Shown here: positions 2,736 through 32,000 of the stretch, piece after piece
Position numbering within the stretch: the stretch's first letter is position 1
Layout of the letters: every line of letters starts with the position of its first letter
Assembly: GCA_025839675.1 (NCBI GenBank)
Contig: CP104013.1
Coordinates: forward strand, 750,001 to 782,000
DNA: 32,000 nucleotides
Reading direction: 5' to 3'
Source of the DNA: Candidatus Lokiarchaeum ossiferum
GTDB taxonomy: Archaea; Asgardarchaeota; Lokiarchaeia; Sigyniarchaeales; Promethearchaeaceae
Made by a program: the position numbers and the translations under genes
Notes under the pieces: model-generated
Told to the model about the DNA's origin: nothing
The model's input: the letters and a program-made list of their open reading frames with translations, nothing else
Databases searched by the model: none

Positions 2736-2831
2736 TTGGTTCTACTTGGATAAAATTCCATTGTAGAAAGGTTCCATTAAGAAATGATCAAGTTTGGTTG
2801 AAGATAGATGGGATACTTTCAAAGTTTTCGT

Positions 2832-2836
2832 GAGGT
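2832..2836 (+). promoter_or_regulatory. Shine-Dalgarno-like sequence of the giant gene
   Basis: GAGGT within gtgaGAGGTcgacaaATG, with a 6-nt spacer to the ATG at 2843. Confidence 0.5.
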
Positions 2837-2842
2837 CGACAA

Positions 2843-5800
2843 ATGATGAAAAAAAAAACTCATAACTTGAAATCTGATTTTATTTCTAAGTTTACACATA
2901 AAATTGCCTCATTTGGAGGCATCTGTGCAATATTATTATTGATAATAGTTTCTGCACCTCTTGAAAATCCTACTGCATCAGAATCAGTAGTATATAACCC
3001 TAGTAGTTCTACCTACCAGTATAATTATGGGGAAAGACCTCCAATTATTGCATGGAATATTACATCTTTAAAAATGGGGGATTTTTCCTACCTTATTCGA
3101 AATGAAACATCTGTCCTCCAGACAGGACGACTATCCAAATTAGGAGTTCTTAGATTTCAAACCCCTTCGGTTCCTTGTGGCATCTATAATTATACTTTGG
3201 ATATTTATGAACATGAGAAAATAATTTCTTCTCACACAATTTGGGTCTCAGTTATAAATGATCTTCCAACATTTGAAAATGTAGTATATGAAGACCAATA
3301 TGAATTCGGAAGTAAATTTAACATGATTCAATGGAATTTAATTGATCGATTCATCGATAGAGGTTATTATGAAATTTTTGACGGATTTGGCTCGAAATCA
3401 ACTCGGAAATTGGCTCGATATGATTTAATTTCTCCAAATGCAACAATTAACTACTATTTTCCAGATTTAGAAATTGGTGATCATCTTATTCGATTAGAAT
3501 ATTATGATGGATTAGGCGGGTCAAAAATTTCTCAAATACCGATCTCGATTTTACCTGATTTAGATCCGAGAATTACTGCAAAAATACCTAACGATATTGA
3601 ACAAGGACATAATTTTACTGCCACATATACCCTCAAAGATTATATTTATGGAGATGGAAGTTACAACCTTTATTTAAACGGAACACTCCAAGAACAGGGA
3701 AATTGGAACCAGTCGCTTCATATTACACCCGAAATTAATAGTTCAGACCTTGGGCTAGGCACGACTCAATTAATATTTGAATATACTACCCGTGTGGAAA
3801 ATCGAACAGATCCATTCAATTTGACTTATTTTACTGAAATTTATTACCACAAATCCTTCATCACGATTCATAATAATCTTTGTCCTGAAATATCAGGTGA
3901 AATTGACACCACCAAAGAATCAACTACCTTTGTTTGGACTATTTACGATGCAAAATTTGGACCCTCCGCAAATTATCGAATTACCTACCAAGGAACGGAG
4001 ATGGCGTGGGGAAATATAACAGATATCAACTTGTTCACTGATAAAGAAGGTTGCATAGTAAAGTATGTATTACCACACTATCTCACAGCCAAAACGAATC
4101 TTGGTTTGGAATTAGTGGTTGAAGATGGTTTTGGAAATTCTACATCAAATTACTTGGAAATATTATCAAACTATGAAGAAAAGACACCTATTTATTTATC
4201 TTCCTCAATTAAATTGGATAAACCTCCTTCCGATTCGGGGATACCTCTTTTGATTTTGGCAATTGCCATAGGAGCACTTATTTGTTCTGAAATATGGGGT
4301 AAAATGCAAAAAAAAACCCGACGCTTGGTCATGTCCATTGCTGCCATGGGTTTATTGGGATTTAACTTAGATTTAATCACAGGAAGTGCTTTTTTTGGAG
4401 GAGCTTCTCCCATTTCTTTCTTTGAAATTTCCCCTGGATATTCAGAAGATGCTGCAAGTGGTTGGGACACTAATCAGACCGAATTTACTATCCGAGTATT
4501 CGATACTCTTCACTATGAATTTTATTTGCCCGAAGATGCAATTGTAGAACCAATTATCACAAATGAGTTGGGTTACGATATCCCCATTCCTTCTCAGTTT
4601 TATGAAGCAGGAATGCAATCAGGCGAAATTTATATGGATCCCAAGCGATATATCAATATAACTTCTGGGTTTGAAAATGTGACTGAAATCCAAAACTCTT
4701 TAAATTTCTTACCAAATCATCAATATACAATTACATTAAACACCTATCGTCCAGATGAATTGTACGATGTATTATCGGGATGGTCAGACACCTATACTTT
4801 CACAGTAATGAAAGCCAAAAGTGCCATCACTTTTGAAAAAATAGGCGGATATGATAAAGGATTATCGATGGTCGATTATACTAATGATCCGCTAAATAGT
4901 CGAGTGCTTTATCGTTATGAATGTACATTGAGCAATGCCTTTTCCAATGATGCTTTATATAATGAACTCGTGCATATATATCAATTAAACCACAATTCAG
5001 AATTATATGAATCCCTTGATGAAATCTCCACGAATTTAGAAGGAAAAATCTCCATTGGAGAAACTCGCTATGCAAAGGATATTGACGCAGCCGAATTCTA
5101 TTACCCAGGGAATGAATTCTATGAATCAGATTTGGAACAAGATTCAATTGATGTGAATCATATTCTGAGTCCGTTCGATTATACCCATCCAGAAGAAGAG
5201 TTATTGACCGAAGGAGAATCATCCCATATGTTCGATGATAGCTCCACTTCTACTTCCTATACGGGAGTGAATAAAAAAGTTTCATGGGGGCAAAATATTA
5301 CCGATACTCAAGGATTTTTACTCACGGAGCCCACATTTCAAGCACCTCAGCCTCAGTTTGGAGTAATTCCGAATGTTGGAATGTATGTTGGAACAGTATC
5401 GAACTATTCCGGGAGTTGTATTATAATGTCAAGTAGCATTTATGTATATTCCGATTCCGTTGATTATGCTAACCTCACCCTTCGATTTCAAAATATTTGG
5501 CAACGAAATGGTTTAAGTGATGATCTTTCTGAAGGAAATGTTCAACTCAGGGCTATTTTATTTGATGATCTACTCAATATTCAAGAAATTGTTCCCTTAT
5601 ACGATGGTTTTCTGAAATCCTACCAAACTCAGACAATATCTTTTAATCCCGACAATTTTCAAGAAGTAAGTCAGATCTATATCGGAATTTGGGTGGAGAT
5701 TATCGCCCCAACGTGCCATATTGGATATGATTCCGCCGATGAAGTCTATGTCATTTTCAGTGATTTTGAATTGGATATCCGATACCCACCTGCGATTGGA

Positions 5801-8800: not shown

Positions 8801-11800
8801 TATGGCTTGGAAGATGGCTATTCCTACTTCCGAGATCTCAGTCAAGGGATATTATGGACCCTTACCCAACTTCAAGAAAACATTGAAAATGATACAATCT
8901 ATGATGCAGGAGATATTTTTGATCGGGCTTCGGAATGTGCGTATTTAGGATATGTCGAGCAATTTACTACCATGATTCCGGCCCATTATATAAAGGATGC
9001 CGATCACGCGATTGTTGCTCAATTTGAAGCCCTATTTTCAACGCTCTATAATGATTTAACCTACATTGATACTTTAGCCGCTCTTGTAGATGCGAAAGAG
9101 CAAAATATCATAGATAAAGAAATTGAAATCCTATCTGCTGAACTTGCGTTAGCAAATGCCATCGATGATTTATCTATATTAAATAGTGAATTAGCAGCAT
9201 TGAATGCTCAATTGGCTTCAAATCAAACCCTTCTATCATCAACTCAAGATTATCTCAGTCAAAAACAAGCAGACTTAGTCGCGGCTGAGGTGGCTCGAGA
9301 TGATCCCTTGACGGGAGTAGATGCCTTATGGGAACTCATTGTCTTAAAGGAATCGTATTACGATTCGAATGCCTCCCGGGCGACGGCTATCACGAACTCC
9401 GATTCCACAGGATTACGAGGAATTGCTAAAAATGAGTGGGATAGCGCTGAAGCAATGTTGGCTTTATGGCAAGACTATTATAATTGGAACGATTCGCGCC
9501 AGCTTGCGATAAGTGATTCCGATTTCACCGGGTTGCGAGGACTCGCCTATGATGAATGGCAAACCGCTCAAACCACCTTAGATCTGTGGCAAGGCTATTA
9601 TGCAGCCAATATGTCTCTCCAAACCGAGTTAGGGGATGATCAGGTAGGATTAATTGCCGATGCATTAAATGACTGGAACGCTTTGGAAAATGAACTAACC
9701 CTTTGGCAAACATATCAGAGTTGGAATATTTCACGGTTGAATGAAATCGGCAGTGATGATTATCAAGGTGATCGAGGAACAATGTGGTTAATTATTCAGA
9801 GTATCGAAGATGATCTTAATTTCTGGATAAGTGAACGGGATAATTATTACGATCGAGCAGTGAACCAAATTACTGATTCTGATTCCTCCGGAGAGCGAGG
9901 TGCGGCCAAAGATGTCTGGGATGCTGCCCTTCTTGCCTTGTCAAATAAGGAAGCAGAACTTGTCTCATGGGAAGCAAATCTTGCGACCTATGGCGATAAT
10001 GAATCTGGACTTATTGGAGATAAAAAAACAGAATGGGATGCAGCCATAGCAGAAGTGATTTATTGGCAAGGAGAAGTCAATGCTCAGGCAATCATTGTGA
10101 ATACTGAAATTGCTGAGCGAGATCAATTATATGATGATGTGCAAAATCGATTATCAATAGCATCTTCTATTCTTAGCACAATTAATGCATGGGAAGCATC
10201 GCTTACGGCCTTGGAAGCCGACTTAGTTGATTTAATCCAAATTTGTGATGATCTACAAGATCTCGCTGATTATTATCTTCAGAGGCGAAATGATTTTACA
10301 CCTGGTTCCAGCGGATGGAATTACTGGGAAGATATGTGGTTTGACACCCTTTTTGAGTTATATAGGGCCCAGAGAGATGTTACTGATTGTGAAAATTCAA
10401 TAACTGCTTTAGAAAATGCAATAGGTGTCGATACAGGGTATTATGCCACTTCAACAGCGAAATGGAAGGAATACCGATATTATAAAGGAGACATTAATCT
10501 TTTGAATCCTGTTCAAGTCTATGAAGATTATATTTATCAAGCTAATACTGTAGTCCCAAATGTTCAAATCGTCCTATCATCCTATCAAAATTCCTTGGAT
10601 TCAAGTATAGCAAGTGCAACAATTAAAGAAATGGAATATGATGCATTAGTTGCCTATCGAGATAATACAATCTTAATTAATATTGCTTCAATTCAAGCTG
10701 AAATAAATGATACTTCTGAAGGAAGCTTGCAAGATGCGATTAATGACGCAGCTGCGGCCTATAATGCTTTAATTGACGAGTATAACAGTATCATGGATCA
10801 ACCAGACGGCTTTTATTGGATATGTGTAGCAACTATCGGAGATGAATCAATTGGTCTGGTGAAGGATCTAAATGATGCATATGATTATCGACAGTCGCTA
10901 ATTGATGAATATGATTACATCTATAATATTGCTTTACCCTTATGCGATGATACTATCAATAATCCTTCAACAGGATTGATAACACTAGCGAGTACCGCTG
11001 AAACCTATTATAATTCTTTGAATGCGACTCTTGTAGGGGTGAATGCTGATATTGCATATTGTGTCACCATTATTGGAGGTACCAGTTCAGGTCTTATTCA
11101 AGATCGGGATCAAAAGTTTGCCTTCTATAATTCACTCGTGGCCGAATATTTGGCCATTACCGAAAATGGGGGCAATTTGGATATCTGTACGGCTCAAATT
11201 GTAGCTTATATTGTCTTGAGCGATCAAGAAGAGCAAAAATATCTCGATTTAATTGCGGAATACAATTTGATTATGACTGTGATACTTCCGACATTAGATG
11301 ATGAAATCAATAATCCAACTACAGGTCTTTATGCCCTTCGTCAAGCTTTATTCGATACCATTTCGGTATTAAATGGAGAAATAGCAGGGATCTTGGCAGA
11401 TATTTCAACCCTTGAAGGTATTATTTATAGCATTGAAAATGACATTACAATTAAAACTAGCGAGATTTCTGCCCAAGAAGGTGTGCAAGCTTCCATCGAA
11501 GCCGACATCATAGGATTGTATAGTGATTTAGATGTTTTAAATTCGGAATTAAACACTCTCGAGGATCAGTATAAGCAAGAGTCGCTCTTAAAATTGGACC
11601 ATGCATATAACTTCATGTATTTAGTTCTCCAGCCCAAACTTACAGGCTTAAATTATAACATTTTGGATGATTCGTTAGCTTCATTTACCTCCCAATCGTT
11701 ACTGACCTATACAGGAGGAACACCTAATTGGAATCCAACTCTCGATATCTCCTCAATTCCCGATGGATTTATTGCAATCGGTATTTATGCCGAAGATACT

Positions 11801-26800: not shown

Positions 26801-29800
26801 GCCTATCAAAGCCGCACATTCCAGCAGTATGATTGGGATGAGATTAATGTCCATACCAGCATTCCAAGTTATGATGAATTCTTTATTGATAAAGATGGGG
26901 AAGAGCAAAACTATTTCCTGACTAACACAACCGTCTTCGATTGGAGTGAGTGGACTACGGGTTATACCACGTCCTATGATCAAGAAGGTGATGGAGCATG
27001 GGAAAAAGTGATAGATCGTCAAGATCTCTTCCAGAATGATGAATATTACTTGGAAGAGGGATATGACAACTATATTTTCGAAACCTATTCAACCCGATCT
27101 GCGAGTTCCTATGATGTCTATAACGTGACAAATCCTTCGGAAATTTTAGAGACGAAACTCAACGTAACAATCGATTATGGGAATACATTGGTCGAAGACG
27201 CCACCTTCTATCTCTTAGGGGCTGATTCTCCCGATGAATGGCTGACCACAGGCAAGTGTTTGAATAATATCACCGGATCTTTTGTGGTAGAGTACAATGT
27301 GCCGGTCCCAATCGATCCTCGGATTGAAGTGCCAGAATCCATGCGAATTCAAGAAAATGGTCTTATCTATTGGTATAACAGTAATCCCGAAGAAGACAAT
27401 TACTATGAAACTGCGTTTATTATGACCGAAGAGAGTGCTAAGGATAATATTGCAGTTGCGGTTTATATCAGTCGCAGCGGTCGTCAGCAAGTATTAACCG
27501 ATCCCCTTGAATATAAATTGAGTGGTGATGACATCATCGCTTCCCATTGGTTGAATGATGAATATGGCTACGAAGATATCATGGATATTGCGTGGGATAA
27601 TGCCTGGACCAATTATTTAGCCATGCTTGAAACGGAAGAATATATGACCATGAATGTTATTGATACGGCCGCATCCGCAGTACTTCTAGCAGGAACGGCA
27701 TTCGCAGGCAAGTTCATAGCATCAGCAGTCATACTATCGGGGCCCGTAGGTTTGATGGTTGGATTCGGTTTAGCCATTGGCTATGTTGCGGGAATGTTAA
27801 TCTATACAAATTATGTTAGACCTGCCATTGAAGATCTTTTAATTGAGCGAGGTGTGATTGGAGATCGTGCCACCGAAATCGGAAAGAATCCCGATGTGCG
27901 GTTTTGGCAAGATTTTAAAACATTCATCGGTGATGGAACGGAAAATTTGGTTGAATCCTTCTCTATTTTCGCATTACGGGATCCAACTCCTTACTATACC
28001 GAAAAGGCCTACTTCATGGATACCGATCCCTTCACTTTGGATCTGAATCCTGGCATCGCCAATGAAACGTGGAATTATGCTATTGAATATAACGTCCCTC
28101 AATTCTGGGCCCCTCGGGCACGAGATGATTATAAAGGACCCCTTCCTTGGTGGGATAATGTAGCAGCAGCCTTAGATTTAGGAGAGGCAATTAAAAATAC
28201 GGGATTCTTCACCGCTCCGCAATCAACGGAACTTGCCGCCCTTGGAATTAGTCTCGGAGTCGATGATGATGAACGATCCGAAGTTGTGGCCCAACTGTGG
28301 GCTCGAGCGGCCACTTACCGATACCAAGCAGATATGGGATCGGGATATATCGTCAATTCTGAAGCCGAAGCGCTAGAATACTGGATGGTCAAGGCTTTAG
28401 AATATCAAGCCTATCACCGCCGCACTTTGCATCAGTTCTTTTATCGAGATGCTCCATGGGGTAAGGAAGGACTTTGGGATATTGAAGAACATCCTACATG
28501 GAATACTATCAATCATATTGGACATGTTGAATCGACTTTAGCCAGCCATTCATTCTCCAATATGACCCGTCTTGAATATCAAACAGGAGCCTTAGGAGAA
28601 CCGACATTGGTCGCTCGCAAAGATACCACCCTCAATTATAATGATTCGAATATCTACGAAGTCGATTATCAAATCATGTGTTTGCTGTCCAAGTATCAAA
28701 CGGGCTATGCATCGGCCGAAAACTATGATCCTCGCATCTTCTGGAATAATTTAAAGACCCGAGCCATACAAGTGGCCATTGGAATTGCTTCGGCTTGGTG
28801 TGGAGGTGCCCTCGGATTAGCAGTTGGAACCAAACTTGGTTCAACTATTGCCCTCAATTCTTACGTCCAGCAATATTTCGCCGGAACCGTATCTCAACAG
28901 ACCTTAGATCGAATGGTTTCTATTACATTTACCGATGCGTTCCGCCAGACCACAGCTACTATGGCTGCAAATAGTATATTCGGTAAATACTGGTTTGCGG
29001 AACAGATGATCGAAGAATTGGTCTTAGAAAATATTGTTGCTCAAACTGCTTTATTATTTGGCTGTGGAGAAGGTCTTGCTGAACAATTGGGAGAAATATT
29101 TGGCCAAGTTAATATGCTATCATCCTTCTCAGACATATATATGAATGTGAAGCAAGGAATCGGTTTGTTTGGCCAATTAGGTCAGCGTATTTTCAATTCC
29201 CAGCAGAATTCACTCATGGCTTACCGTGCCTCCCAATCCATTGGGCATTCCTTGACCAATATTAAAGGATTATTGGGGATTTCGCAAGATTCCCAGGGTC
29301 ATATTATCATCCAGAAAAATTTGAAAGCCAGTCAAGATGGCGCCATTTCGACCTTGCAAACCGCGCTTCAGGAGAAACTTCTTCAACAACTGCCCTATGC
29401 CAGCGGTGATTTGCTGTGTGAAGATATTCTTCTTGCTATTATGGAAAGATCCATCGATGCCGCCATGCAAGGACCAAATATGGCTACCCATTCGCAAATT
29501 TTGGACACGGTGCAGGCCAGCATTACGAAGGATTTCCCCCAAGTTCAAATTAGTATGCGTCAATTCACGCAGCTCTTTAAGCTGAAGGTCGTCAATAGTA
29601 TCTTGAGTGGATCGAATGACTTGATGAATGTATTGAACGATCAAGATCTCTGGGAACTTGGAGGAGTGGATCTAAACCAAGGCACCTATACCAAGATGCG
29701 GCTAGCCAACCACGGATCGAACGTAGAATTCCATGTGAAATATGATGGCCAAGTAGACAAATATGTTGATGGAGCGCTCGTGGGCACCTACTTTGTGAAC

Positions 29801-31642
29801 GATCTTACGGGCTTGGGGGTGGATCTGCGGAGCTTAGGGCAGGTCTTCACCGAGTTCGACATTGTGGAGATGATTGATCCAAAGGATAATGGTGATTTGG
29901 ATCATGTTATTCAAGTTTTAAAACCGTCCAAAATTTTTGCTCGATTTAGTAGAGATCAAGAAACAACTTCTGTTTACAATCAAGAAATCATTCTCGCAGA
30001 TGGGGCTTCTGATAGGAATGTCCAATTATTTGCAGAAAAAACCATCCATGATGTGATGACCAATAAAGAATTAATCTCTAAAATTTTGTCCGAAGAAGTA
30101 TCAATAAATCCGGATCAAAGTGTGTTAATTGATGAATTTAATCATATTAAGGTCAAAGAATTGATCGAACGGACTCAAAATGTCTGGCGAAAAATGTTTA
30201 TAGCTTGTGATCAACTCCTGTTCAAAGAAGGTAAATCGACTCTCGATGCTAGTAATGAACCTATAAATCAAATAGAATTTGCTAAACAATTCTCCGACTT
30301 ATTTGGAGATAAATTAAAATATGATGCAAATATAATCCAGACATTGCTTGATTTAAGTCAGATTGGAAGAAAAACGATAAGTTCCAATCACATGAAAGCC
30401 TATCGGGCTGATGAGTTTGTTCTACTTCATAATGAAATGCTTTCTTTTCTGGGAAATGCAAATCCTGATTCTCCGCTAAAACTGACTCGCGACCGATTAG
30501 ATTATATTAGACAAAAGGACACTTTTTCGAGTTCCCTTACCATTTTTGAGGCTCTCATGTTGGATCAAATGAATCGCTATCTTGGTAACATGTTTATATC
30601 AGAAGGTGCCTTCTATGACTGGATGAGCACAGGTTGGGTGGAGTTAAAAAGTGATTTTAATTATCGGCAATGGAATGCGCGCAGTGCCCCTCTCTTCCTC
30701 AACCATTACCAAGAAATGATCTTCTATGATGCTACCAAGGCAAAAACCGCCACCCTGACTCTAACGATCAATGGGCAACCCGTCCCTGTGAAAGTGGAGT
30801 GTGATTCCTATTTCGAAAAGAGGTTAGTCGATACTATTGGGGACCTAATGAAGACCTATCCAGCCGCCAATGAACGCTTTTCACGGGTGTTTGGTAGTGA
30901 AATTTTCAAGCATTTGCCCCATAACCTTTTGGCGACGGTGCAAAAACAAGTTATTACGCGCGGAGGTATCAGGATGGCACGATATGATCCTGATATAATT
31001 GCTGCTTACACGGGTGAATCAGTTTTCGGAATATTGCAATCCATTGGAACACTTGCGTTTACTACCTCCTCAGAATTGAAAGAGGGAAAAATCTATCTGG
31101 ATTTAGGGCTCGTGTTTGGGGCCGTGGATGAATTTCGGGGAGTAATGATCGAAGCCTTAGGGTATGACGACTATGATCAATATGGGCAGCATTATGGGGA
31201 GAAAAAGGATAACTCGGCTCTGGCCTTGTTGGACGCCCACTTCGCCCAGATCTATGTGGCGCGGGAACAGGCCCGTGATGGCGATCCTGAATCACTCTAT
31301 ACATGGTATCAGAAAAATGCGAAATATATTGGGAAGAATGCGCCATTGCTCACCGAAAGCCAATATAAGCTGTTGATGGAACTCATAATGAAGAATCCGA
31401 ATGTACCCTTTGAAGAGCTGATGTTAAATCTAGCAGATAATTTTGAAGCTTATGGATTTCAGGATATTGAATCTGCCAAAGCATTTCAAAAAATATTTGG
31501 AATTGAAAAAGGTCCTCTTGGATATAAGAGTAATGAAAAAATGGATCCATGGTGGACTAATTATCAGAATTCCAAGCAAGGGATGATAGATGGGAGAATT
31601 AATTTGATTAATTCCCAATTGCATTACTTTTGGAGGAAATAA
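2843..31642 (+). CDS. Giant polytopic cell-surface protein (9,599 aa), adhesin/tether-like; multi-domain, no named family recognised for the whole protein
   Basis: Uninterrupted 28,800-nt ORF in AT-rich DNA. All other frames over the same span are broken into ORFs of 138 codons or fewer. SD upstream, stop TAA at 31640-31642, T8 immediately after. The internal architecture is given in the sub-features below. Confidence 0.95.
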   Translation: MMKKKTHNLKSDFISKFTHKIASFGGICAILLLIIVSAPLENPTASESVVYNPSSSTYQYNYGERPPIIAWNITSLKMGDFSYLIRNETSVLQTGRLSKLGVLRFQTPSVPCGIYNYTLDIYEHEKIISSHTIWVSVINDLPTFENVVYEDQYEFGSKFNMIQWNLIDRFIDRGYYEIFDGFGSKSTRKLARYDLISPNATINYYFPDLEIGDHLIRLEYYDGLGGSKISQIPISILPDLDPRITAKIPNDIEQGHNFTATYTLKDYIYGDGSYNLYLNGTLQEQGNWNQSLHITPEINSSDLGLGTTQLIFEYTTRVENRTDPFNLTYFTEIYYHKSFITIHNNLCPEISGEIDTTKESTTFVWTIYDAKFGPSANYRITYQGTEMAWGNITDINLFTDKEGCIVKYVLPHYLTAKTNLGLELVVEDGFGNSTSNYLEILSNYEEKTPIYLSSSIKLDKPPSDSGIPLLILAIAIGALICSEIWGKMQKKTRRLVMSIAAMGLLGFNLDLITGSAFFGGASPISFFEISPGYSEDAASGWDTNQTEFTIRVFDTLHYEFYLPEDAIVEPIITNELGYDIPIPSQFYEAGMQSGEIYMDPKRYINITSGFENVTEIQNSLNFLPNHQYTITLNTYRPDELYDVLSGWSDTYTFTVMKAKSAITFEKIGGYDKGLSMVDYTNDPLNSRVLYRYECTLSNAFSNDALYNELVHIYQLNHNSELYESLDEISTNLEGKISIGETRYAKDIDAAEFYYPGNEFYESDLEQDSIDVNHILSPFDYTHPEEELLTEGESSHMFDDSSTSTSYTGVNKKVSWGQNITDTQGFLLTEPTFQAPQPQFGVIPNVGMYVGTVSNYSGSCIIMSSSIYVYSDSVDYANLTLRFQNIWQRNGLSDDLSEGNVQLRAILFDDLLNIQEIVPLYDGFLKSYQTQTISFNPDNFQEVSQIYIGIWVEIIAPTCHIGYDSADEVYVIFSDFELDIRYPPAIGSAGHLTNWETYYLEANTKGMDVFVGEHDLTFTTTSGRADEGTLGQLAAIGEMKLQNPIDFTSTSVESSIIQFTSDGVIRQMIFDGDDGSSSYNLYLTPVYSDGSRGSVMSLQSATIESNSSTISVILSLNDYIGEVISHWILTGEFNIPSTSHGLPDLVEIFLSNPQIQVNGVAINLVDVSDPDPVPDYYLSRTVEPIPSDPPQYLPDSEGFLRDHCVAGPFFVTTQVWEEYETITGEFIDPTRDYQPGEFTVPNTPALPNSDPKLWEYVHSNKMHMKYNSYYNINDFCVAYSSFYVYISEFTPNLYIRGGSDESSRYYWDSEEIYYSHERRTLDIKTSEEEHDIIHLTNITQGYHKVLIMTEEYDSLWRYRVRFSLTPGSGDATYTPVHNIHFTHERPESDPRFTSITMDTQIQKSPRITPNRDSLIFSPNPQRVKEGTYAEMTVKSFIANGTALSGTLFNGSLAMNLQGFVDLAEWTADSVGVNASLTFELFAKNDLGNYVREFDTLLWTDLLSDITALSLTVENITVELAPVFANFSSPDRLLQEYFIRFKMIMVAEDDGTIPANLGVEISKLSLVLNDLEPVADWININDGELLSGIKNLSVVGVSRDIDMVRFLGSYDNGLTTYPIGEVYYNPATMADWVFTYAFDTDHHPIFHNDTENFTLIAELMDDYYSVELTMITGLKIDNTPPDLQIRNVNSNDLLTEPVWIEIDTEATDIEYIDLYLDSYNDTELIESQLLTTLTDGTGGWLYYLDPSLYPSREYNIKAVATDRTFEESLQGNAELTNVEFARVSPFFIGTSPLNGSEISDSVTFEFQASTTLISHIDIAVSTTATQDLSQTDFMPQTTLNGDASDLYSYIFDSTTVYGEDCEAWHYLQFDFWIDAYKETYYYLLFINNQPPLISMDFEPSTNFLAQTYSYELLNNVVDGLLTHEILTIFNQSTLQLDIDHSFTEDIAVLEYYVNVFDQTYQNLSDPLANQLNYDMITTDLQFSPSIEGYGLEDGYSYFRDLSQGILWTLTQLQENIENDTIYDAGDIFDRASECAYLGYVEQFTTMIPAHYIKDADHAIVAQFEALFSTLYNDLTYIDTLAALVDAKEQNIIDKEIEILSAELALANAIDDLSILNSELAALNAQLASNQTLLSSTQDYLSQKQADLVAAEVARDDPLTGVDALWELIVLKESYYDSNASRATAITNSDSTGLRGIAKNEWDSAEAMLALWQDYYNWNDSRQLAISDSDFTGLRGLAYDEWQTAQTTLDLWQGYYAANMSLQTELGDDQVGLIADALNDWNALENELTLWQTYQSWNISRLNEIGSDDYQGDRGTMWLIIQSIEDDLNFWISERDNYYDRAVNQITDSDSSGERGAAKDVWDAALLALSNKEAELVSWEANLATYGDNESGLIGDKKTEWDAAIAEVIYWQGEVNAQAIIVNTEIAERDQLYDDVQNRLSIASSILSTINAWEASLTALEADLVDLIQICDDLQDLADYYLQRRNDFTPGSSGWNYWEDMWFDTLFELYRAQRDVTDCENSITALENAIGVDTGYYATSTAKWKEYRYYKGDINLLNPVQVYEDYIYQANTVVPNVQIVLSSYQNSLDSSIASATIKEMEYDALVAYRDNTILINIASIQAEINDTSEGSLQDAINDAAAAYNALIDEYNSIMDQPDGFYWICVATIGDESIGLVKDLNDAYDYRQSLIDEYDYIYNIALPLCDDTINNPSTGLITLASTAETYYNSLNATLVGVNADIAYCVTIIGGTSSGLIQDRDQKFAFYNSLVAEYLAITENGGNLDICTAQIVAYIVLSDQEEQKYLDLIAEYNLIMTVILPTLDDEINNPTTGLYALRQALFDTISVLNGEIAGILADISTLEGIIYSIENDITIKTSEISAQEGVQASIEADIIGLYSDLDVLNSELNTLEDQYKQESLLKLDHAYNFMYLVLQPKLTGLNYNILDDSLASFTSQSLLTYTGGTPNWNPTLDISSIPDGFIAIGIYAEDTAGNSINITTPTYFLDKGSPDVSLFYPISDSQVEVEKNLGVDEYNMLTFAFWVQDQDVKKINLQSMVIFNEFMAQDLSDYICRINPGEISQITLFFNQSESNLLFDQFVESPWIEVTVECEDYFGKKTTFTTQFQAVEQVDTKNPVINEIILPDSQNIYTGGFDVWINATDPNNGTGVRFVDLWMDKMDSDLTPESLVFLIDQWQQDQLPEDHMLLTNYLGMITDPEVSGLYYLNPFEMSGRFANLTSGEHTFYIRVFDYNYNYVTYSFSRTIIMPEINISPNEIICTEGENKELSIFLKNFGNQIANVTFELMFADALDQNPENGFIPLWSLTDVNGTDGWNVTFALIPEQDFYLNYRIVQMDNSIISSVTHQEFLTQIARVLFPEYSGNETYIDSAYAKHRFTVDDTTPHDITINLGDDMILNDEWTLESFWFGNYTTQKVEVFLDDEIVGEFNATEDILDKSTPLYKDTTPIDSQTGETFVLNPYDETTGEYLIDDGEYEMVVKVTFLNGKSATSNPISIIIDTSSPEFQEDGIYLNGGSTTDYEWVDDTYLVFTNETVDIVIHARDDVTDITAINLTLGTSLDPADDVVTMEIFGTDLNLWWDGSVQEQLRVNMSALGLADGKYYLRVEIFSGGGVQMDQSFAIAYDTDAPLGYFSNPAQYTIYTQDHIELFYTCATESPFGTAHIQSVTFYMQLMDTHENITLGTSSVPIQIHTDGSQTFATLFTNPQAYQETITFWVSIHDEAGNAQWNITTTEHEISTYQIMLDGFTNVLPMIPNEAITGSLNGYFEFQTDPQKLDVSMELLVNDVPIEDLVTFDPKGLDEDEDFAIEWNARLIPEQLKEVKIPFNFLEYSSASLNPDPSTDKQAWGFFNSSDRPSVAYVSQQQLHIFIPELLEESVNFFNWVHLSLPIPLDPVLQMEAFDWNADGQDEIAILTATSLIMVWNEDEIWAYIPLDLSLQNVDQFCIGGANIYLANQNELLIYTKDTDSSLNLIDTILLDGSAKINGLTFGSIAPTNLYYPVITTSEKHLQYYDGTKWLTMFTSAFPFTSHLFCENLDLTPAHELLFAIEIPAGTIPETDVIRAQWDEVDLKWRVVSTGDFSEIKEVFDIQTGHLAADNYGRVIVARGDELAIQRLGEKDLTFLYSDFSYDPYTSSSPFQAGTLTEDVELSSSSLLEARLENSNSDVSFSSDSSSAYNIEFDSIEDPVPTTAYSTVSASELLQNPLSSQQLTTGNQDALSTSRILAPFTGGFINDTAETKATGLEMTDFRYDFRSGSNYDLDPTLNQIGYDVLADGGVSEGYTYSDIGIENIQSSGILKNFAFYQNFDINCGDYETDIDYDANGQSSYSVTSEPFDAHSRLDAFRYTRSNPDGGYIGHGNSYPLHKEDYPIFAYDRCLPAYGEKLPVGNNFLKDDLSMTIPLKLNIDVKNFDVGEVRFQLSLAAYSHVFYSIYTTNGATDGRSNMYSANFDLYLVSGGNRLEITDTSYWATVGHYTDRLVSGIECLPVQYWDFNSPNVWKGVDVHIPIGVWTDYGIDPNDCKLEIVMTDPYLNHCYPQYSTGEGIYDTSSYEIYSMVRTLMYRSMILKYFRVSYYQNPKSIMNGFMTDYEQFSISNGIPINFVAGEGDDPTVSGGPIQIKKGNTLPEPEENVGNFQTELGDFENLRVSLKIKPVSQLWLSDADTSPLSALLNPFSSTSLYSNDFQISSIVSSTPSLVSLTIKYYTPSGDSTQILYPTDWEMVGDYLQGDVLLWIDDVSTEKIEIVPTLQWSVTTSITRLDLGDYFYPKTPLVAIQRTIPASSILVGTAGQLREKAQLSDTLMSKWELAQDDSYTAFSTLEFATDMLLEIPSIFPLNQPQQLEVAIPITPAFKVYNLQSQIITGTTSASDITINPFIEYTLNGIEYIPLEASTPASINEGILLFRIDTIDYGTYFDFREGYESQGSTFLNFRLNIDLIFHDPAEMTIAGSTESSIKASITFGTPQTTLLMYNAYPLATAGENNLIYSQTIELECDTQSSLFNSGDGSYRGEMISEFSVDASEITSFDGQPLLNFPLKMEISRITTEITATTTYEVMYDSNGDGDYLDADEFLFSNEDGSFDGYYHFALKEERGQTDLYRTQFEIRITSVYQTYVETSSFVNEFKLNYYIDNNAIITRDDLNWISDQDILGGTFLFDFGLQSTSQSFEHILQSNNALEDGEIDFTHWGELACEFAVNLPIDYTQEDLDAITMLNLEIAPSSTIVAEIWTHDDPTNMVDLMDNPWETWESEFNGGTQIFQIRDSGLTTWTNLGPAEDPELDALCWDEMVEYWLSPTTSLSEFVQDGGGVDYLDFRVILDTTNFGETHVPDPYDSSRYSIDLSDVRVRLFTEDPKDAMIYTASQDLACTPNDYEFSSLTVGIDSSLEIAGKFGIGTDVLLEDLPEGAIIYSNIQASLAIKHDGVYVAYGEYTLTPFTNTQSIFANALIEAEIPSMAQYNAFTNDKTTPLEFRITWTWELENTYLYPVQFTNTQNYQIDAEGYSWDQNSTTLALSSHVLNVHDLDLDNDFDLLLDGGNGLLFQENTGYYPMTLRAYDGYDELICEQSFFGTLDSGSPHPELTSLEDRIGDHLIPEFNTLMDLVIVDYSPDLMHLDIFFSEDGTFVDIDHVDYETSHIFGNGDSLPVPINDYFYPISLDTSSFGADGMKYLKIVGIDSVGNFGEYFMEFWYDRQDPLTSISFSHSDASKVSLQTEVTLQISDSGNVDEAGSVKETHLKIWNEDQTVSYLHEIISKEEIEAGSLSLSLYEDIIVPYNLQADHLMMEYWSIDFASNEEVHQWEDIIIDDSYSIRLYSDETYSTILEGEVSVQYLDQLFGKILDTFDQPLPFGFEVDLHLDGLKYSTIHIWNNEGNFNTTIISSEIQGEDLRTLPGTIINHNGWSEDQYHADRIIDLPVRGEIQKIETQGLSRFYYQDVNDMELSYSNLDLENLAVGQNYEGIHLDLFIPWQFNDNVGTTFEKIQITFINQSEEDDSLNIEWKYTLDQNDLAELFVANQQPLVWGNNLVNYIPVDINFAELMAYGMFYEIPFDFATVDEIVITGYRNPTHPSFSLTDPTSSSLTLICGEIRLVDLLNDATTYYQENPLGIERPYIYNGQIAGNFFNSLSISSPNTLRFNHKDLPVMSAVLEEGDAIYSDSITVSAISFGGENLPETTHMISDYLKLTARNASMDMIDVGMPTHDGAPSSLAFTLVQKPDNYTHLTLNYSGNSLFNSIASQINASLVLQKENLVLDFENVPLTDAYTMHILRNTTRSFNGIIKDDDESVPIYFVPHSQLISYPLYSFDSSSWVWKQDITVEDTSIRLGAKTGINTYQWFDYQEGNIASFNFTMDNQEGGNIPFTPQTIICAVNYPGNDFYKNTTREFNIEIHPLEVQLVPNAITFDLSEEKLSIDEDGRISDATWTFTDDNLYSFSLKDQYSTPLQEKPVWMSIGVLPKGASLPYDFTNPADSYVAQYLGSAGNPSQELLNLMIYQDYTGVPQIYPFVDEQDNDAIKMFAPLYYQMGLTDENGSVSFLLEGNIFAQVLDNWNRYIFAGGSLEDVNLYMRVFYDNQFNSESMKIATEYMLDQEYEVVFGGNEEFVYNQNTTQWGTYEIEGNAEYFDSNYASTYAHGIVNFRKEDLVLVSGYFEPKNPDDFTVGVQLMEADIVGSDDTGFSLIPEEEGKSSNLLDLTGITFPDEFSILMEIFDQSGTSKVIDGRYQLGEYVDNIQLMDPEGSALFNVNEDIFGPQFQRLVPNVYTIQYSLSSLESYSKMYNLPNSTTCQLVIKSPYTYTLDYPSHIYSLPNMVMSDTEMNVAYGNGTEYWSHMNFDHGYPIITADLLIRNTTDYIPNYNLTDVINVQFNINGMEYEYYFSLNTSEYIDEEGIYHAGDDYTFEIPVKFLDGMRPNISVYTSLEFTPENNINWSQVEMDYIDQYIDQETGIVDWAEWEEWEESNMTKAYEEYRLGASYEVIMENFTLHESTLRTDGQSWQFSQEFADGDSNNDHQWQYNDETMPTFETDISTDQYTTTLGEHTALDFDEDSIPDEFVSIAVSENQVCTTFDSSDTIIDWQEDRIEFMQNMTFNTTFTLNNFFTVEQKTKNLTQPFNLRSETYQTYEGFLFPSLDEESEIITWDHSLRSGAYWTDVAHIEDKDLISVGLHEGESTCLIRDNLYMPYNGAVDWDFRIPNVNNYDLGSLPSSDLEFIINFTLVKNMQNGPIQWTQILELSPLTGIIEGNNLAFKEVGFDIPDLYCSEWIDLELNITLKNAPSTNLEKVMLLKGMITGDETIYRISNEFPTKLRAKLFSANFLYFFTQRALTEEIGATRNTYEFYSGDPENRPADDIFFSLEQCDEPYAKDLVSMVEVWDWDIYQANPDRYIQVENWEFDEETRTYTEIEELFAPQSTSTYAEFGLDDPFGVSMLKLRLDDTFLETLTSFEKYSMFVDLHNVPGDLYASRPIPSIIVNDPANFLARQKITLLVQPSTWDQTPQRSILSSENSGSSISTDVSSKNINMSAEENTVFESQLIYYMDEQSSDIAINDWSQTHVKSDSTVDPSELTDDLDRLMYDDNETISYVEEIDFSHEPLLVDMHPYFTLGDRLYSAEMQARFSMNISQIYRGNPWFDWLEIPFLLDSVAFVDWIEVSYVTTSGTTRTLITYSDLESIQFTGDDLTYAIPDGDIIDTVMFKFQLAMHLDKSLVPNMTLMGLGLFRDSSVGELTIEVEAEDETTEIQRIDLLPTFCYSPMLPKGDRIPFSFTDNGQNKILKSISISTPVVSNTDMYLYGLNLIKMTETDDSWEADPIYTYSFDKRSRDYQNMMLSFYANDVGLPTWNDPAGALRVENIPWVSQVSYDIDGDMIYDLTITQSDGEGKGDELAGYYGQQIIFEKIVDLDGSMTLHQTLSSGTPYTYFENGVKDTITYDFGADGTDELMRKWDTEIVTYNITEENSYETPYHFISRTQIVSFEELIDQTGDGKFNFRQRAYQSRTFQQYDWDEINVHTSIPSYDEFFIDKDGEEQNYFLTNTTVFDWSEWTTGYTTSYDQEGDGAWEKVIDRQDLFQNDEYYLEEGYDNYIFETYSTRSASSYDVYNVTNPSEILETKLNVTIDYGNTLVEDATFYLLGADSPDEWLTTGKCLNNITGSFVVEYNVPVPIDPRIEVPESMRIQENGLIYWYNSNPEEDNYYETAFIMTEESAKDNIAVAVYISRSGRQQVLTDPLEYKLSGDDIIASHWLNDEYGYEDIMDIAWDNAWTNYLAMLETEEYMTMNVIDTAASAVLLAGTAFAGKFIASAVILSGPVGLMVGFGLAIGYVAGMLIYTNYVRPAIEDLLIERGVIGDRATEIGKNPDVRFWQDFKTFIGDGTENLVESFSIFALRDPTPYYTEKAYFMDTDPFTLDLNPGIANETWNYAIEYNVPQFWAPRARDDYKGPLPWWDNVAAALDLGEAIKNTGFFTAPQSTELAALGISLGVDDDERSEVVAQLWARAATYRYQADMGSGYIVNSEAEALEYWMVKALEYQAYHRRTLHQFFYRDAPWGKEGLWDIEEHPTWNTINHIGHVESTLASHSFSNMTRLEYQTGALGEPTLVARKDTTLNYNDSNIYEVDYQIMCLLSKYQTGYASAENYDPRIFWNNLKTRAIQVAIGIASAWCGGALGLAVGTKLGSTIALNSYVQQYFAGTVSQQTLDRMVSITFTDAFRQTTATMAANSIFGKYWFAEQMIEELVLENIVAQTALLFGCGEGLAEQLGEIFGQVNMLSSFSDIYMNVKQGIGLFGQLGQRIFNSQQNSLMAYRASQSIGHSLTNIKGLLGISQDSQGHIIIQKNLKASQDGAISTLQTALQEKLLQQLPYASGDLLCEDILLAIMERSIDAAMQGPNMATHSQILDTVQASITKDFPQVQISMRQFTQLFKLKVVNSILSGSNDLMNVLNDQDLWELGGVDLNQGTYTKMRLANHGSNVEFHVKYDGQVDKYVDGALVGTYFVNDLTGLGVDLRSLGQVFTEFDIVEMIDPKDNGDLDHVIQVLKPSKIFARFSRDQETTSVYNQEIILADGASDRNVQLFAEKTIHDVMTNKELISKILSEEVSINPDQSVLIDEFNHIKVKELIERTQNVWRKMFIACDQLLFKEGKSTLDASNEPINQIEFAKQFSDLFGDKLKYDANIIQTLLDLSQIGRKTISSNHMKAYRADEFVLLHNEMLSFLGNANPDSPLKLTRDRLDYIRQKDTFSSSLTIFEALMLDQMNRYLGNMFISEGAFYDWMSTGWVELKSDFNYRQWNARSAPLFLNHYQEMIFYDATKAKTATLTLTINGQPVPVKVECDSYFEKRLVDTIGDLMKTYPAANERFSRVFGSEIFKHLPHNLLATVQKQVITRGGIRMARYDPDIIAAYTGESVFGILQSIGTLAFTTSSELKEGKIYLDLGLVFGAVDEFRGVMIEALGYDDYDQYGQHYGEKKDNSALALLDAHFAQIYVAREQARDGDPESLYTWYQKNAKYIGKNAPLLTESQYKLLMELIMKNPNVPFEELMLNLADNFEAYGFQDIESAKAFQKIFGIEKGPLGYKSNEKMDPWWTNYQNSKQGMIDGRINLINSQLHYFWRK
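2912..2962 (+). other. N-terminal signal-anchor or signal-peptide hydrophobic segment
   Basis: MMKKKTHNLKSDFISKFTHKIAS (basic n-region) is followed by FGGICAILLLIIVSAPL and then ENPTASES. Confidence 0.7.
3029..4180 (+). repeat. Four tandem ~95-aa beta-sandwich-type modules (protein-level repeat), densely decorated with N-x-S/T sequons
   Basis: A motif recurs once per module: IAWNITS..GDFSYLIRNE; IQWNLIDRFIDRGYYEIFDG; TATYTLKDYIYGDGSYNLYLNG; FVWTIYDAKFGPSANYRITYQG. The last module ends in VEDGFGNST. I hand-counted 12 N-x-S/T sequons among about 30 Asn in aa 41-465. Confidence 0.55.
4241..4402 (+). other. Membrane hairpin: TM helix, basic loop, then a second hydrophobic segment that looks like an internal signal peptide
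   Basis: IPLLILAIAIGALICSEIWG (4241-4300), then KMQKKTRRL, then VMSIAAMGLLGFNLDLITGSAFFGG (4328-4402). Met488 (ATG 4304) is followed by an A9 tract (4308-4316). Confidence 0.6.
6656..6931 (+). other. PA14-like / jelly-roll lectin-like segment (tentative)
   Basis: NDFCVAYSSFYVYISEFTPNLYIRGGSDESSRYYWDSEEIYYSH...HLTNITQGYHKVLIMTEEYDSLWRYRVRFSL follows the PA14 pattern: F..Y i....G.Y.f....DD....w.dg, then L..G..y.i.i.y.e, then l.w. This is pattern-level only. Confidence 0.3.
9356..10075 (+). repeat. Trp-rich ~40-aa tandem repeat family A, six units (protein level)
   Basis: The six units are: YYDSNASRATAITNSDSTGLRGIAKNEWDSAEAMLALWQD / YYNWNDSRQLAISDSDFTGLRGLAYDEWQTAQTTLDLWQG / YYAANMSLQTELGDDQVGLIADALNDWNALENELTLWQT / YQSWNISRLNEIGSDDYQGDRGTMWLIIQSIEDDLNFWISERDN / YYDRAVNQITDSDSSGERGAAKDVWDAALLALSNKEAELVSWEAN / LATYGDNESGLIGDKKTEWDAAIAEVIYWQGE. 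They sum to 240 aa, which equals 720 nt exactly. Confidence 0.8.
10709..11425 (+). repeat. ~40-aa tandem repeat family B, six units, with recurring Cys (protein level)
   Basis: The six units are: DTSEGSLQDAINDAAAAYNALIDEYNSIMDQPDGFYWICVATIG / DESIGLVKDLNDAYDYRQSLIDEYDYIYNIALPLCDDTIN / NPSTGLITLASTAETYYNSLNATLVGVNADIAYCVTIIG / GTSSGLIQDRDQKFAFYNSLVAEYLAITENGGNLDICTAQIVAYIV / LSDQEEQKYLDLIAEYNLIMTVILPTLDDEIN / NPTTGLYALRQALFDTISVLNGEIAGILADISTLEGII. They sum to 239 aa, which equals 717 nt. Confidence 0.65.
11700..14110 (+). repeat. Array of Ig-like (bacterial Ig / Big-type) beta-sandwich domains
   Basis: Domain-start motifs D-x-x-x-P recur at 11843 (DKGSP), 12218 (DTKNP), 13016 (DDTTP), 13373 (DTSSP) and 13748 (DTDAP). 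Domain-end motifs of the D-x-AGN type also occur (AEDTAGNS ~11791, HDEAGNA ~14035). The same motifs appear outside the array at 7865 (DNTPP) and 19928 (DRQDP, preceded by GIDSVGNF). Confidence 0.55.
14470..15225 (+). other. FG-GAP / integrin-alpha-like beta-propeller-type segment (tentative)
   Basis: Canonical Ca-loop D-x-N-x-D-G-x-x-E-I (FDWNADGQDEIAIL, 14579-14605), followed by strand-like blades (SLIMVWNED, ANIYLANQNELLIYT, LYYPVITTSEKHLQYYDG, HELLFAIE, GRVIVARGDELAIQR). A degenerate second loop lies elsewhere (HDLDLDNDFDLLLDGGNG, ~19420-19475). Confidence 0.4.
15266..15540 (+). other. Ser/Thr-rich low-complexity linker
   Basis: PYTSSSPFQAGTLTEDVELSSSSLLEARLENSNSDVSFSSDSSSAYNIEFDSIEDPVPTTAYSTVSASELLQNPLSSQQLTTGNQDALSTS. 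Confidence 0.6.
18041..18076 (+). other. EF-hand/dockerin-like 12-residue Ca-binding loop
   Basis: DSNGDGDYLDAD fits D-x-N-x-D-G-x-(aromatic)-x-x-x-D. Confidence 0.5.
26411..27016 (+). repeat. Four spaced D-x-x-x-D-G/M-x-(aromatic/aliphatic) loops; putative Ca-binding repeat module near the membrane
   Basis: DIDGDMIYD (26411), DFGADGTDE (26618), DQTGDGKFN (26762), DQEGDGAWE (26978). They are spaced 48-72 aa apart. Confidence 0.45.
27668..27805 (+). other. Pair of adjacent C-terminal transmembrane helices
   Basis: AASAVLLAGTAFAGKFIASAVIL (27668-27736), then SGP, then VGLMVGFGLAIGYVAGMLIY (27746-27805). Confidence 0.7.
28763..28855 (+). other. Third C-terminal hydrophobic (Gly/Ala-rich) segment, possible TM helix
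   Basis: AIQVAIGIASAWCGGALGLAVGTKLGSTIAL, preceded by NNLKTR. Confidence 0.5.
28856..31639 (+). other. ~928-aa C-terminal domain of unknown function, probably cytoplasmic
   Basis: No N-x-S/T sequon among 52 Asn (hand count). Composition shifts to K/R/Q/L-rich, helical-looking sequence. I found no Walker A, HExxH or other catalytic motif. Confidence 0.5.
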
Positions 31643-31650: not shown

Positions 31651-31674
31651 GTATATATAACGGAATGAGAAGAC

Positions 31675-32000
31675 ATGAATCAACACAATTTAAAAGGGAT
31701 TTTACCCCCATATAATGAGGTATCAGAAGAAAAACAAAAATTCCTTGTATCTATTAAGGATATTATCTTAGATGCTTGGGAAATTTCAAAAAATGGACAT
31801 CTGATGGTCTATATTGATGAGGAAAAAATCATCAGGCAATTGACAATCGAAATGAAAGAATCATCCAAACAAGCGGAAATTGCCACTTTAATTGATAAAA
31901 TCCCCCATCATTTCAAACATCTTAATAAATTAATCCTAAATGTTGTTGGGATGGAAAAAATTCCCTTATGGCTTTCTGAACTTCACAATCTTCAACTTCT
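31675..32000 (+). CDS. Leucine-rich-repeat-like protein, 5' fragment; continues beyond the window
   Basis: Frame 1 is open for 108 codons from ATG 31675 to the window end: MNQHNLKGILPPYNEVSEEKQKFLVSIKDIILDAWEISKNGHLMVYIDEEKIIRQLTIEMKESSKQAEIATLIDKIPHHFKHLNKLILNVVGMEKIPLWLSELHNLQL. The last ~26 aa fit an LRR unit (LxxLxLxxxxxxxIPxxLxxLxxLxL). It is absent from the ORF track because it has no stop in the window. Confidence 0.6.
   Translation, partial: MNQHNLKGILPPYNEVSEEKQKFLVSIKDIILDAWEISKNGHLMVYIDEEKIIRQLTIEMKESSKQAEIATLIDKIPHHFKHLNKLILNVVGMEKIPLWLSELHNLQL

Follow-up and report, generated by a model that had tools for sequence, protein, structure and literature searches.

A Giant Gene of Candidatus Lokiarchaeum ossiferum with a Polymorphic C-Terminal Tail and a Leucine-Rich Repeat Partner Gene: A Candidate Effector/Immunity-Type System of Asgard Archaea

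A stretch of 32,000 bp of contig CP104013.1 (assembly GCA_025839675.1, positions 750,001 to 782,000 of the forward strand) of Candidatus Lokiarchaeum ossiferum B-35, hereafter the window, contains a single 28.8-kb open reading frame (ORF) at 2843..31642 (+), with 9,599 codons plus a stop and a product of about 1 MDa. The locus was found with high confidence to have a cassette architecture, and the giant gene is probably the main component of a polymorphic effector/immunity-type system, toxin function included, built on a new Asgard scaffold. The effector/immunity reading is based on a protein body that is conserved as far as a demarcation motif, on C-termini that are unrelated beyond it, on a neighbouring partner gene of the leucine-rich repeat (LRR) type that co-varies with them, and on exchanged orphan cassettes. 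All segments of the giant protein given below are encoded on the plus strand, and their amino acid (aa) positions are followed by window coordinates.

Family of Giant Proteins and Their Polymorphic Tails

An exhaustive HMMER search with aa 8400–9599 retrieved 28 relatives of the giant protein, 13 of them at E ≤ 1e-10. Word-indexed protein searches with aa 1–5000 and aa 8251–9599 gave no matches, but the method missed true relatives; since the result for aa 8251–9599 was a false negative, that for aa 1–5000 is not to be trusted either. Among the relatives, P0025 (a fragment of 4,203 aa) corresponds to aa 5455–8404 and 8585–8979 of the giant protein, followed by a short tail; P0002 (2,296 aa), annotated as a protein of a Promethearchaeota (Asgard) metagenome-assembled genome, corresponds to aa 7475–9021 and then 9414–9582, the C-terminal domain being held in common; P0003 (a fragment of 1,320 aa) corresponds to aa 7741–9069 and has a different C-terminus; and P0009, P0010 and P0013 (907–1,424 aa) share the juxtamembrane core only and carry unrelated tails. 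P0003 clusters with P0035, a protein of 7,451 aa that is collinear with the giant protein, at 26–31% identity, from aa ~1390, where the homology of the ectodomain to other Promethearchaeota giants starts, as far as the tail. A related ENA contig encodes a 10,073-aa member (the ENA giant) with 63% identity across the last 2,963 residues. The homologies to P0035 and to the ENA giant indicate that the family is a set of Asgard proteins of seven to ten thousand residues. Peptide-pattern scans of metagenome contigs and of 185,579 GTDB species representatives found no relatives, the latter result suggesting that the family is rare. In the genome encoding P0002, a gene for an S8 subtilisin-like peptidase lies just upstream on the opposite strand (L003 7496–9691); its product, encoded at this one locus, might serve as a processing enzyme.

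The boundary motif (I/V)DP is present in nine family members, including the giant protein (...FTEFDIVEMIDP; aa 9011–9013, nt 29873–29881). In the 110 residues before the motif, 20 of the 36 protein pairs were significantly similar (median z score 5.2), as compared with 1 of 36 in the 250 residues after it (median z score 0.25). The tails after the motif range from 223 to 946 aa, and by these pair statistics the tail of the giant protein (aa 9014–9599, 29882..31639) is polymorphic and unrelated to those of most members.

Several family tails, that of the giant protein included, end in a domain of about 190 aa, here called module C (aa 9404–9595, 31052..31627), which about 18 proteins have in common and of which there are also short copies, either stand-alone or orphan. 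Its conserved motifs are LD, E.LG, YG.KKD, IG..APLLT..Q, Q.AFG and WW.N. The AlphaFold2 model of aa 9290–9599, obtained with an 18-sequence alignment, had a mean predicted local distance difference test score (pLDDT) of 77.3, a predicted template modelling score of 0.78 and a core above a pLDDT of 90. A Foldseek search of the module C model against PDB and BFVD gave nothing significant (best E 0.26), and no match was obtained with a module C profile against PDB sequences, with Pfam on every member or with tblastn against plasmids. In agreement with these results, the initial annotation had recognised no catalytic motif in the giant protein. The PD-(D/E)xK-like motif pattern and a restriction-endonuclease-like core in module C are only a lead, and identification as a PD-(D/E)xK nuclease was rejected because neither the pattern nor the matches to N.BspD6I, Bax1 and SwaI were significant (E 0.26 or worse). 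In the tail of P0003/P0035 (L005 ~3500–4191), the sequence 'FHMES ... SPCQNPIDTNC' recalls the H-x-E ... PC-x-C zinc signature of deaminase toxins; a deaminase assignment based on this H-x-E ... PC-x7-C motif was discarded, as no profile supported it.

LRR Partner Genes and Orphan Cassettes

The window extends 358 nt beyond the giant stop codon and ends within a downstream gene, of which the first 108 codons are present (31675..32000, +). The translation identifies it as an LRR gene nearly identical to the third LRR gene of the ENA contig (LRR3). This gene would be NEF87_000631, and its product is the putative cognate partner or immunity protein of the tail. An LRR gene is located directly downstream in all four loci for which sequence is at hand, namely those of the ENA giant (L007), P0002 (L003), P0003/P0035 (L005) and the window, and it is present at the P0003/P0035 locus despite a tail of a different type. 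Full-length homologues of the LRR protein match LRR_14 and LRR_8. The downstream LRR proteins are predicted to be cytoplasmic since none of them has a hydrophobic segment, and none has a signal peptide.

The ENA giant is followed, in this order, by LRR1, a partial tail copy, LRR2, a partial tail copy, LRR3, a partial tail copy and an 861-aa fragment, which begins just before the IDP boundary; each of the three orphan tail copies on this contig is followed by an LRR gene or by a further tail fragment. In B-35, one orphan was found, NEF87_000632 (P0001/P0032), a partial tail copy two genes after the giant gene; its opening junction sequence is shared with the ENA orphans. The repeated unit consists of a stretch of the tail domain that is nearly invariant (~95% or more DNA identity in all copies), the variable last ~100 residues of the tail, the variable N-terminal ~250 residues of the LRR protein (15–50% identity) and its nearly invariant C-terminal ~115 residues (78–100% identity). 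The orphan tail copies of both genomes (L007 9932–10561 and 13546–14091; P0032) have a common leader peptide, MDESINLCFTSFLT.CKDRLGLKMI.CHSIS.F.ENLVDEF. Because the leader starts before the preceding LRR gene has ended, these copies may be translated (~180–210 aa) rather than silent.

Recombination in the Tail

Comparison with the ENA giant showed a tract exchanged recently by recombination (aa 8936–9535, 29648..31447). In 100-aa blocks, protein identity was 36–80%, typically about 55%, over aa 6636–8935, then 88–97% over aa 8936–9535, and 55% over the last 64 residues. Four-fold degenerate sites, counted for conserved residues, showed an identity of 0.27–0.35 (saturated) over aa 6636–8935 and 0.68–0.95 over aa 8936–9535; this jump indicates that the similarity of the tail is due to recent exchange and not to purifying selection.

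The last ~110 codons (31300..31639) form a hypervariable tip. Positions 31300–32000 of the window, which comprise the last ~350 nt of the giant gene and the start of the LRR gene, are 98–100% identical to the second ENA orphan and LRR3, whereas identity to the 3′ end of the ENA main gene and LRR1 is 40–80%; the tip itself is 64–80% identical to those of the ENA main gene and orphans 1 and 3. The near-identity to orphan 2 and LRR3 indicates that the tip and the variable half of its LRR partner moved as a unit, through recombination between genomes, between the main-gene and an orphan position.

Coding Status of the Giant ORF

The initial annotation had described a single 28.8-kb coding frame in DNA whose other frames are interrupted within 138 codons or fewer, and both statements are in agreement with the present data. 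The longest ORF of any other frame across the giant ORF is 138 aa, and the GC content by codon position (GC1 0.47, GC2 0.36, GC3 0.35) is strongly structured throughout. A second, independent assembly, that of SRR22273277 in Logan, agrees with the window at 100% identity across the 11.7 kb compared, and on its contig the giant frame is open for 9,449 codons, as far as the contig end; with the support of two assemblies, the ORF is considered real. An assembly artefact, a chimeric join or a decaying pseudogene might be suspected from the extreme length, the lack of annotated domains and the short fragmentary copies close by, but the agreement of the two assemblies, the clear codon-position structure, the absence of any in-frame stop across 28.8 kb of 39% GC DNA and the collinearity of the 7,451- and 10,073-aa homologues across thousands of residues make such an origin extremely unlikely.

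Exact-sequence look-ups identified the neighbouring winged-helix gene as NEF87_000629 of Ca. L. ossiferum B-35, and from the numbering of the flanking tags (_000629 and _000632) the giant gene would be NEF87_000630. Its GC3 climbs steadily, with 0.28 for the first 960 codons and about 0.41 for the last 1,900; the mean of 0.35 is above the values of the neighbouring genes (0.23–0.31). The rise may reflect a mosaic, recombining origin of the 3′ part of the gene.

Layout and Predicted Topology of the Protein

The giant protein is acidic overall (D+E 15.2%, K+R 5.3%) and nearly without internal repeats. Behind a basic N-terminus, the hydrophobic segment at aa 21–39 (2903..2959; KD19 2.36, three K/R upstream and none downstream) is a predicted signal anchor or signal peptide. 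It is followed by a sequon-rich region predicted to be extracellular (aa 40–465, 2960..4237; 12 sequons, 4.9 expected, P ~0.003), by a hydrophobic hairpin (aa 466–484 and 495–513, 4238..4381), whose basic KKTRR loop is predicted from hydrophobicity and flanking charges to be cytoplasmic, and by an almost non-repetitive acidic ectodomain of 7,766 aa (aa 514–8279, 4382..27679; net charge −11 to −12 per 100 aa). The basic N-terminus with an anchor, the transmembrane hairpin and the acidic ectodomain, put at ~7,750 aa, were thus correctly described in the initial annotation. Four sequon-rich modules had also been claimed near the N-terminus; the sequon enrichment was borne out, but only a single weak homologous pair (z 4.5) was found, and the assumption of four homologous modules was dropped.

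Within the ectodomain, aa ~2100–2933 (9140..11641) form a proline-poor, Trp-rich region which, judged by its composition, is of a helical type and fits the 860-aa helical stalk proposed previously. It holds repeats of ~40 aa (aa 2168–2465) and of ~120 aa (aa 2596–2933), neither of which matched any family. The former (window 9344–10237) comprise about seven copies of a Trp-rich unit with the approximate consensus D-S-x-G-L-R-G-x-A-x-x-E-W-D-x-A-x-x-x-L-x-L-W-Q-x-Y-Y. No internal repeats were found elsewhere in the whole protein, and a DNA repeat search of the window gave no terminal or internal repeats of note.

The C-terminal part of the body begins with a Gly-rich double hydrophobic segment kept in the family homologues (aa 8280–8320, 27680..27802), modelled as a helical hairpin with a pLDDT of 60–70. 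Homologue alignments then delimit a conserved juxtamembrane module (aa 8321–8643, 27803..28771) ending in the family signature 'LNY(S/N)D..YEVDY..MCL', and a third, Gly/Ala-rich hydrophobic segment (aa 8644–8662, 28772..28828; KD19 1.73) has the family-conserved pattern A.G..AG and lies within one long modelled helix. The last conserved body module (aa 8663–9013, 28829..29881) is likewise supported by alignments, contains a small beta-rich domain at aa ~8910–9010 (pLDDT 70–84) and ends at the (I/V)DP motif. The AlphaFold2 model of aa 8230–9030, poor as a whole (pLDDT 46) and uninformative in the fold search, suggests a helical hairpin at aa 8265–8335 and a small beta domain right before the IDP motif. 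The C-terminal part after the third segment has 937 aa, so that the two or three late transmembrane helices and the ~928-aa tail of the initial annotation find their counterparts. This large C-terminal part differs in composition from the ectodomain, as the tail is much less acidic (net charge −3 per 100 aa) and free of sequons (none, 6.1 expected, P ~0.003).

By standard topology rules, the N-terminus would be inside, aa 40–465 outside, the first hairpin in the membrane, aa 514–8279 outside, followed by the second hairpin, aa 8321–8643 outside, the last helix, and the tail inside. Because of this topology, the tail is placed in the cytoplasm of the producer together with the LRR protein.

Ectodomain Domains and the Adhesin Interpretation

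Pfam, NCBIfam and PHROGs were searched with overlapping 960-aa tiles (Pfam in two tile registers), and PADLOC with aa 8230–9599 and the neighbouring proteins; no match above threshold was obtained, and PDB sequence searches with both protein halves were empty. The description of a giant polytopic surface protein without a named family therefore holds, whereas the domains that had been named in its ectodomain do not. Big-type Ig arrays were represented by Big_13 at 22.6 bits (cut-off 27) and Big_7 at 14 bits (cut-off 24.1), without tandem repeats; the FG-GAP-like segment by FG-GAP_3 at 14.4 bits (cut-off 26.9); and the PA14-like segment by no Pfam match in the tiles. EF-hand-like loops occur at chance frequency (7 observed, 7.4 expected) with no profile match, and an enrichment in them was discarded. 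Asp-rich loops of the form D-x-[DTS]-G-D-G-x-[FW] recur at aa 7880–8160 (window ~26480–27320), before the late hydrophobic helices, for example DQTGDGKFNF, DQEGDGAWEKV and YDIDGDMIYDL, and are conserved in P0002 and P0003; they matched no profile and are possible calcium-binding loops.

The protein had been proposed to follow an integrin-like logic, as a giant adhesin or tether coupled across the membrane to an intracellular signalling domain, to which the LRR protein could be added as a cytoplasmic adaptor. Its giant acidic ectodomain, anchors at both ends, compositionally distinct tail and weak FG-GAP-like and D-x-[DT]-G-D-G loops are consistent with this proposal, and LRR domains are common protein–protein adaptors. 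Integrins and Ig-repeat giant adhesins indeed share with the giant protein a large extracellular part, membrane anchoring, a separate C-terminal region and, weakly, FG-GAP-like or Asp-rich loops. However, no FG-GAP, Big, PA14 or EF-hand domain and no other integrin-type domain reached its threshold. In place of the FG-GAP propeller and the short conserved tail after a single transmembrane helix of integrins, three late helices and a polymorphic tail of 937 aa were found, and the tandem domains and internal repeats of Big-repeat adhesins were seen neither by profile nor by repeat search. One would expect conservation in a signalling tail, yet the tail is the most variable part of the protein. 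The unrelated tails, the orphan tail and LRR cassettes and the confinement of recombination to the tail are left unexplained by a signalling adhesin and, together with the LRR gene directly downstream, point instead to an effector/immunity or recognition system. The integrin-like proposal was therefore abandoned as the preferred description, and an adhesin or tether of this kind is considered unlikely.

Proposed Function and Its Alternatives

Cells of L. ossiferum have no S-layer, and 'complex surface proteins' have been described on them by cryo-electron tomography (cryo-ET) (PMC9834061). In an effector/immunity system, the tail of the giant protein, here its C-terminal domain of ~190 aa, would be an effector harmful or recognisable in a cytoplasm, and the cognate LRR protein would bind and neutralise it. 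The N-terminally anchored giant ectodomain would reach neighbouring cells across the S-layer-free envelope, and the late hydrophobic helices would either hold the tail in the producer membrane until contact or insert into the membrane of the neighbour, passing the tail across. A cell with the matching LRR allele would be protected and others would be inhibited, resulting in contact-dependent competition or kin discrimination. The predicted cytoplasmic location of the tail implies either that the late helices act on the membrane of the neighbour or that the tail is met only after cytoplasmic contact, and in the second case the system may shade into a non-toxic recognition system, the main rival explanation.

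Several results weigh against the effector/immunity reading. No known trafficking or stalk module (TPS/FHA, RHS/YD, PAAR, LXG, MuF, PrsW) or releasing peptidase was found in the Pfam and NCBIfam tiles, and no delivery mechanism is evident. The tail has no known toxin fold by Pfam, NCBIfam, PHROGs, PADLOC, PDB sequences or Foldseek against PDB and BFVD, and by standard rules it is cytoplasmic in the producer, unlike in classical secreted polymorphic toxins. In addition, the family is small, the cassette evidence comes mainly from one related contig and the B-35 genome, and a search of the literature and its supplements for locus tags and accessions gave no expression evidence for the giant gene.

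The same topology is consistent with a non-toxic identity or allorecognition system, in which the tail would stay cytoplasmic and LRR-bound and matching pairs would decide whether a contact, bridge or fusion is kept. Such a system would work like IdsD/IdsE of Proteus or fungal het loci, without an enzymatic toxin. It would accommodate the placement of the tail in the same compartment as a signal-less LRR protein, the lack of a recognisable catalytic fold, the co-variation of the variable tip with the variable half of the LRR protein, and the cell bridges and close cell–cell contacts described for L. ossiferum (PMC9834061; preprint 10.64898/2026.02.13.705702). Nevertheless, wholly unrelated tails of 223–946 aa fit interchangeable effectors better than alleles of one surface, putative catalytic-type D, E and K residues are conserved in module C, and arrays of orphan cassettes are a hallmark of toxin/immunity systems (PMC3482391), so that allorecognition without a toxin appears rather unlikely.

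A further, improbable version is a compatibility check after contact or fusion, in which the tail would never leave the cytoplasm. The ectodomain would join the protrusions of two cells, the membrane-tethered tail would meet the LRR protein of the partner cell in bridges or fusions, and a mismatch would trigger arrest or death. If true, the lineage nearest to eukaryotes would possess a self/non-self system that is based on LRR proteins and operates in shared cytoplasm. It would have its analogue in fungal heterokaryon incompatibility and would be close in concept to the LRR innate immunity of eukaryotes.

Comparison with Known Systems

Polymorphic toxin systems are defined by a conserved body, a variable C-terminus and stand-alone cassettes (Zhang et al. 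2012, PMC3482391), and LRR proteins are a recognised immunity class, Imm-LRR (PMC3482391). They have been regarded as generally absent from archaea except some methanogens and haloarchaea (PMC3482391), and no archaeal polymorphic toxin system has been characterised experimentally (PMC8416519). At the giant locus, an N-terminal export or anchor signal precedes a long extracellular body, export being a prediction from the sequence; the C-terminus varies after a demarcation motif, as seen in the pair counts around (I/V)DP (20/36 before, 1/36 after); a co-varying LRR gene with a putative neutralising activity lies directly downstream in 4/4 loci; and orphan cassettes of C-terminus and partner, with exchange, number three on the ENA contig and one in B-35.

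The giant locus resembles CdiA/CdiI, Rhs and WapA/WapI (Bacillus) in its very large surface-exposed protein with a conserved body and a short motif before a variable C-terminus, in the small co-varying partner gene directly downstream with evidence of cassette exchange, and in the downstream orphan copies of C-terminus and partner flanked by conserved recombination arms. It differs from the bacterial systems in lacking TPS/FHA, RHS/YD, PAAR and LXG modules or a releasing protease, in a single-membrane host without an outer membrane, in the three hydrophobic helices between stalk and a tail predicted to be cytoplasmic, in tail domains that match no known toxin family and in the (I/V)DP boundary, which is new. 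Polymorphic toxin-type C-termini joined to transmembrane helices also occur in the prePAAR/Tse6-type effectors of the type VI secretion system, in which a polymorphic C-terminal toxin and helices that help it to cross the target membrane are in one polypeptide, and in teneurins, the membrane-anchored eukaryotic descendants of polymorphic toxins. Both are built on other scaffolds, PAAR/VgrG or the YD shell, and are much smaller than the giant protein; no similarity to them in sequence or fold was seen, no test aimed at them having been made.

Among archaeal proteins, VARTIG of the Thermococcales is likewise a large surface protein whose C-terminus is hypervariable through recombination between genomes and which has variable downstream genes (PMC8416519). 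Its organisation was likened to that of polymorphic toxin systems, the function, in conflict or in self/non-self recognition, being unknown (Makarova et al. 2021, PMC8416519). VARTIG is built of Ig domains and its variable part is an extracellular Ig domain (PMC8416519), whereas no Ig domain, and hence no hypervariable C-terminal one, was detected in the Pfam tiles of the giant protein, in which a variable non-Ig tail follows the hydrophobic helices and the LRR partner is predicted to be cytoplasmic. The giant protein is also several times larger, and there is no sequence relationship between the two.

Genomic Context and Strain Comparison

The winged-helix protein NEF87_000629 (255 aa; 954..1721, −) is encoded divergently from the giant gene and is 99% conserved in strain B-36 (CP163304), which has 97.2% average nucleotide identity to B-35 (preprint 10.64898/2026.02.13.705702). 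It has a weak PADLOC similarity (~19 bits) to the HTH part of Csa3/CARF-type regulators, and it might regulate the giant gene. At this position, B-36 shares only the winged-helix stretch (window 677–1920, 99%). An Arf-family GTPase gene that is intact in B-36 (L001 8937–9896) is reduced in the window to a remnant of its last 31 codons and stop (1825..1920, −). The strain breakpoint falls inside this gene and, because homology to B-36 stops there sharply at about nt 1919, the giant locus is placed at a strain-specific breakpoint, next to a rearrangement or insertion. Between the breakpoint and the giant gene lies a non-coding, AT-rich leader of 0.9 kb (1921..2842; ~24% GC); tRNA and Rfam scans of the window, leader included, gave no match. 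Upstream, an array of paralogous SBP_bac_5 substrate-binding genes (window 1–612, +; L001 11102–20652; L002 11110–16816) comprises five genes in B-36 and, in the B-35 contig, three; the product of each seems to have a hydrophobic anchor at its C-terminus. The array differs between the strains in copy number and sequence (83% identity to the nearest B-36 paralogue).

The strain difference raises the alternative that the giant gene is cargo of a mobile or strain-specific island, its function being tied to that element. The aloposons of Heimdallarchaeum carry tandem genes for 3,000–6,000 aa and integrate beside tRNA genes, and upstream lie four conserved genes, one of them for a ParA-like ATPase (PMC8813620). 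As with the aloposon giant genes Otus and Ephialtes and other Asgard giant genes (PMC8813620), the locus has a giant ORF without recognisable function in a strain-variable region of an Asgard genome. An intact Arf-family gene in B-36 against a truncated remnant, AT-rich leader and giant gene in B-35, a giant-gene GC3 of 0.35, with a rise to 0.41, as against 0.23–0.31 in the neighbouring genes, and the precedent of giant genes on Heimdallarchaeal aloposons (PMC8813620) are consistent with such an island. Compared by description, the locus nevertheless has a single giant gene and a winged-helix gene upstream. The aloposon features are absent from the window, with its 358 nt downstream of the stop, since no tRNA, integrase or ParA is visible in it; neither a tandem giant gene nor terminal repeats were found there. 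The difference between B-35 and B-36 may be among the 12 rearrangements reported (preprint 10.64898/2026.02.13.705702), and mobility is compatible with a polymorphic effector function. A function tied to a mobile element is thus regarded as very unlikely.

Significance

The locus is native to Asgard archaea and built of unknown domains, and it is found in one of very few cultured Asgard organisms, a host which makes intimate cell–cell contacts thought to be relevant to eukaryogenesis and which shows unexplained complex surface structures. If the effector/immunity reading is true, the two strains would be a natural pair, with the gene at this position in B-35 and not in B-36, and module C would represent a family of effector domains that is new and has a specific inhibitor of the LRR type. 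The giant protein would be a candidate for some of the densities that cryo-ET shows at the cell surface, and contact-dependent competition or kin recognition between Asgard archaea would have a molecular basis open to testing.

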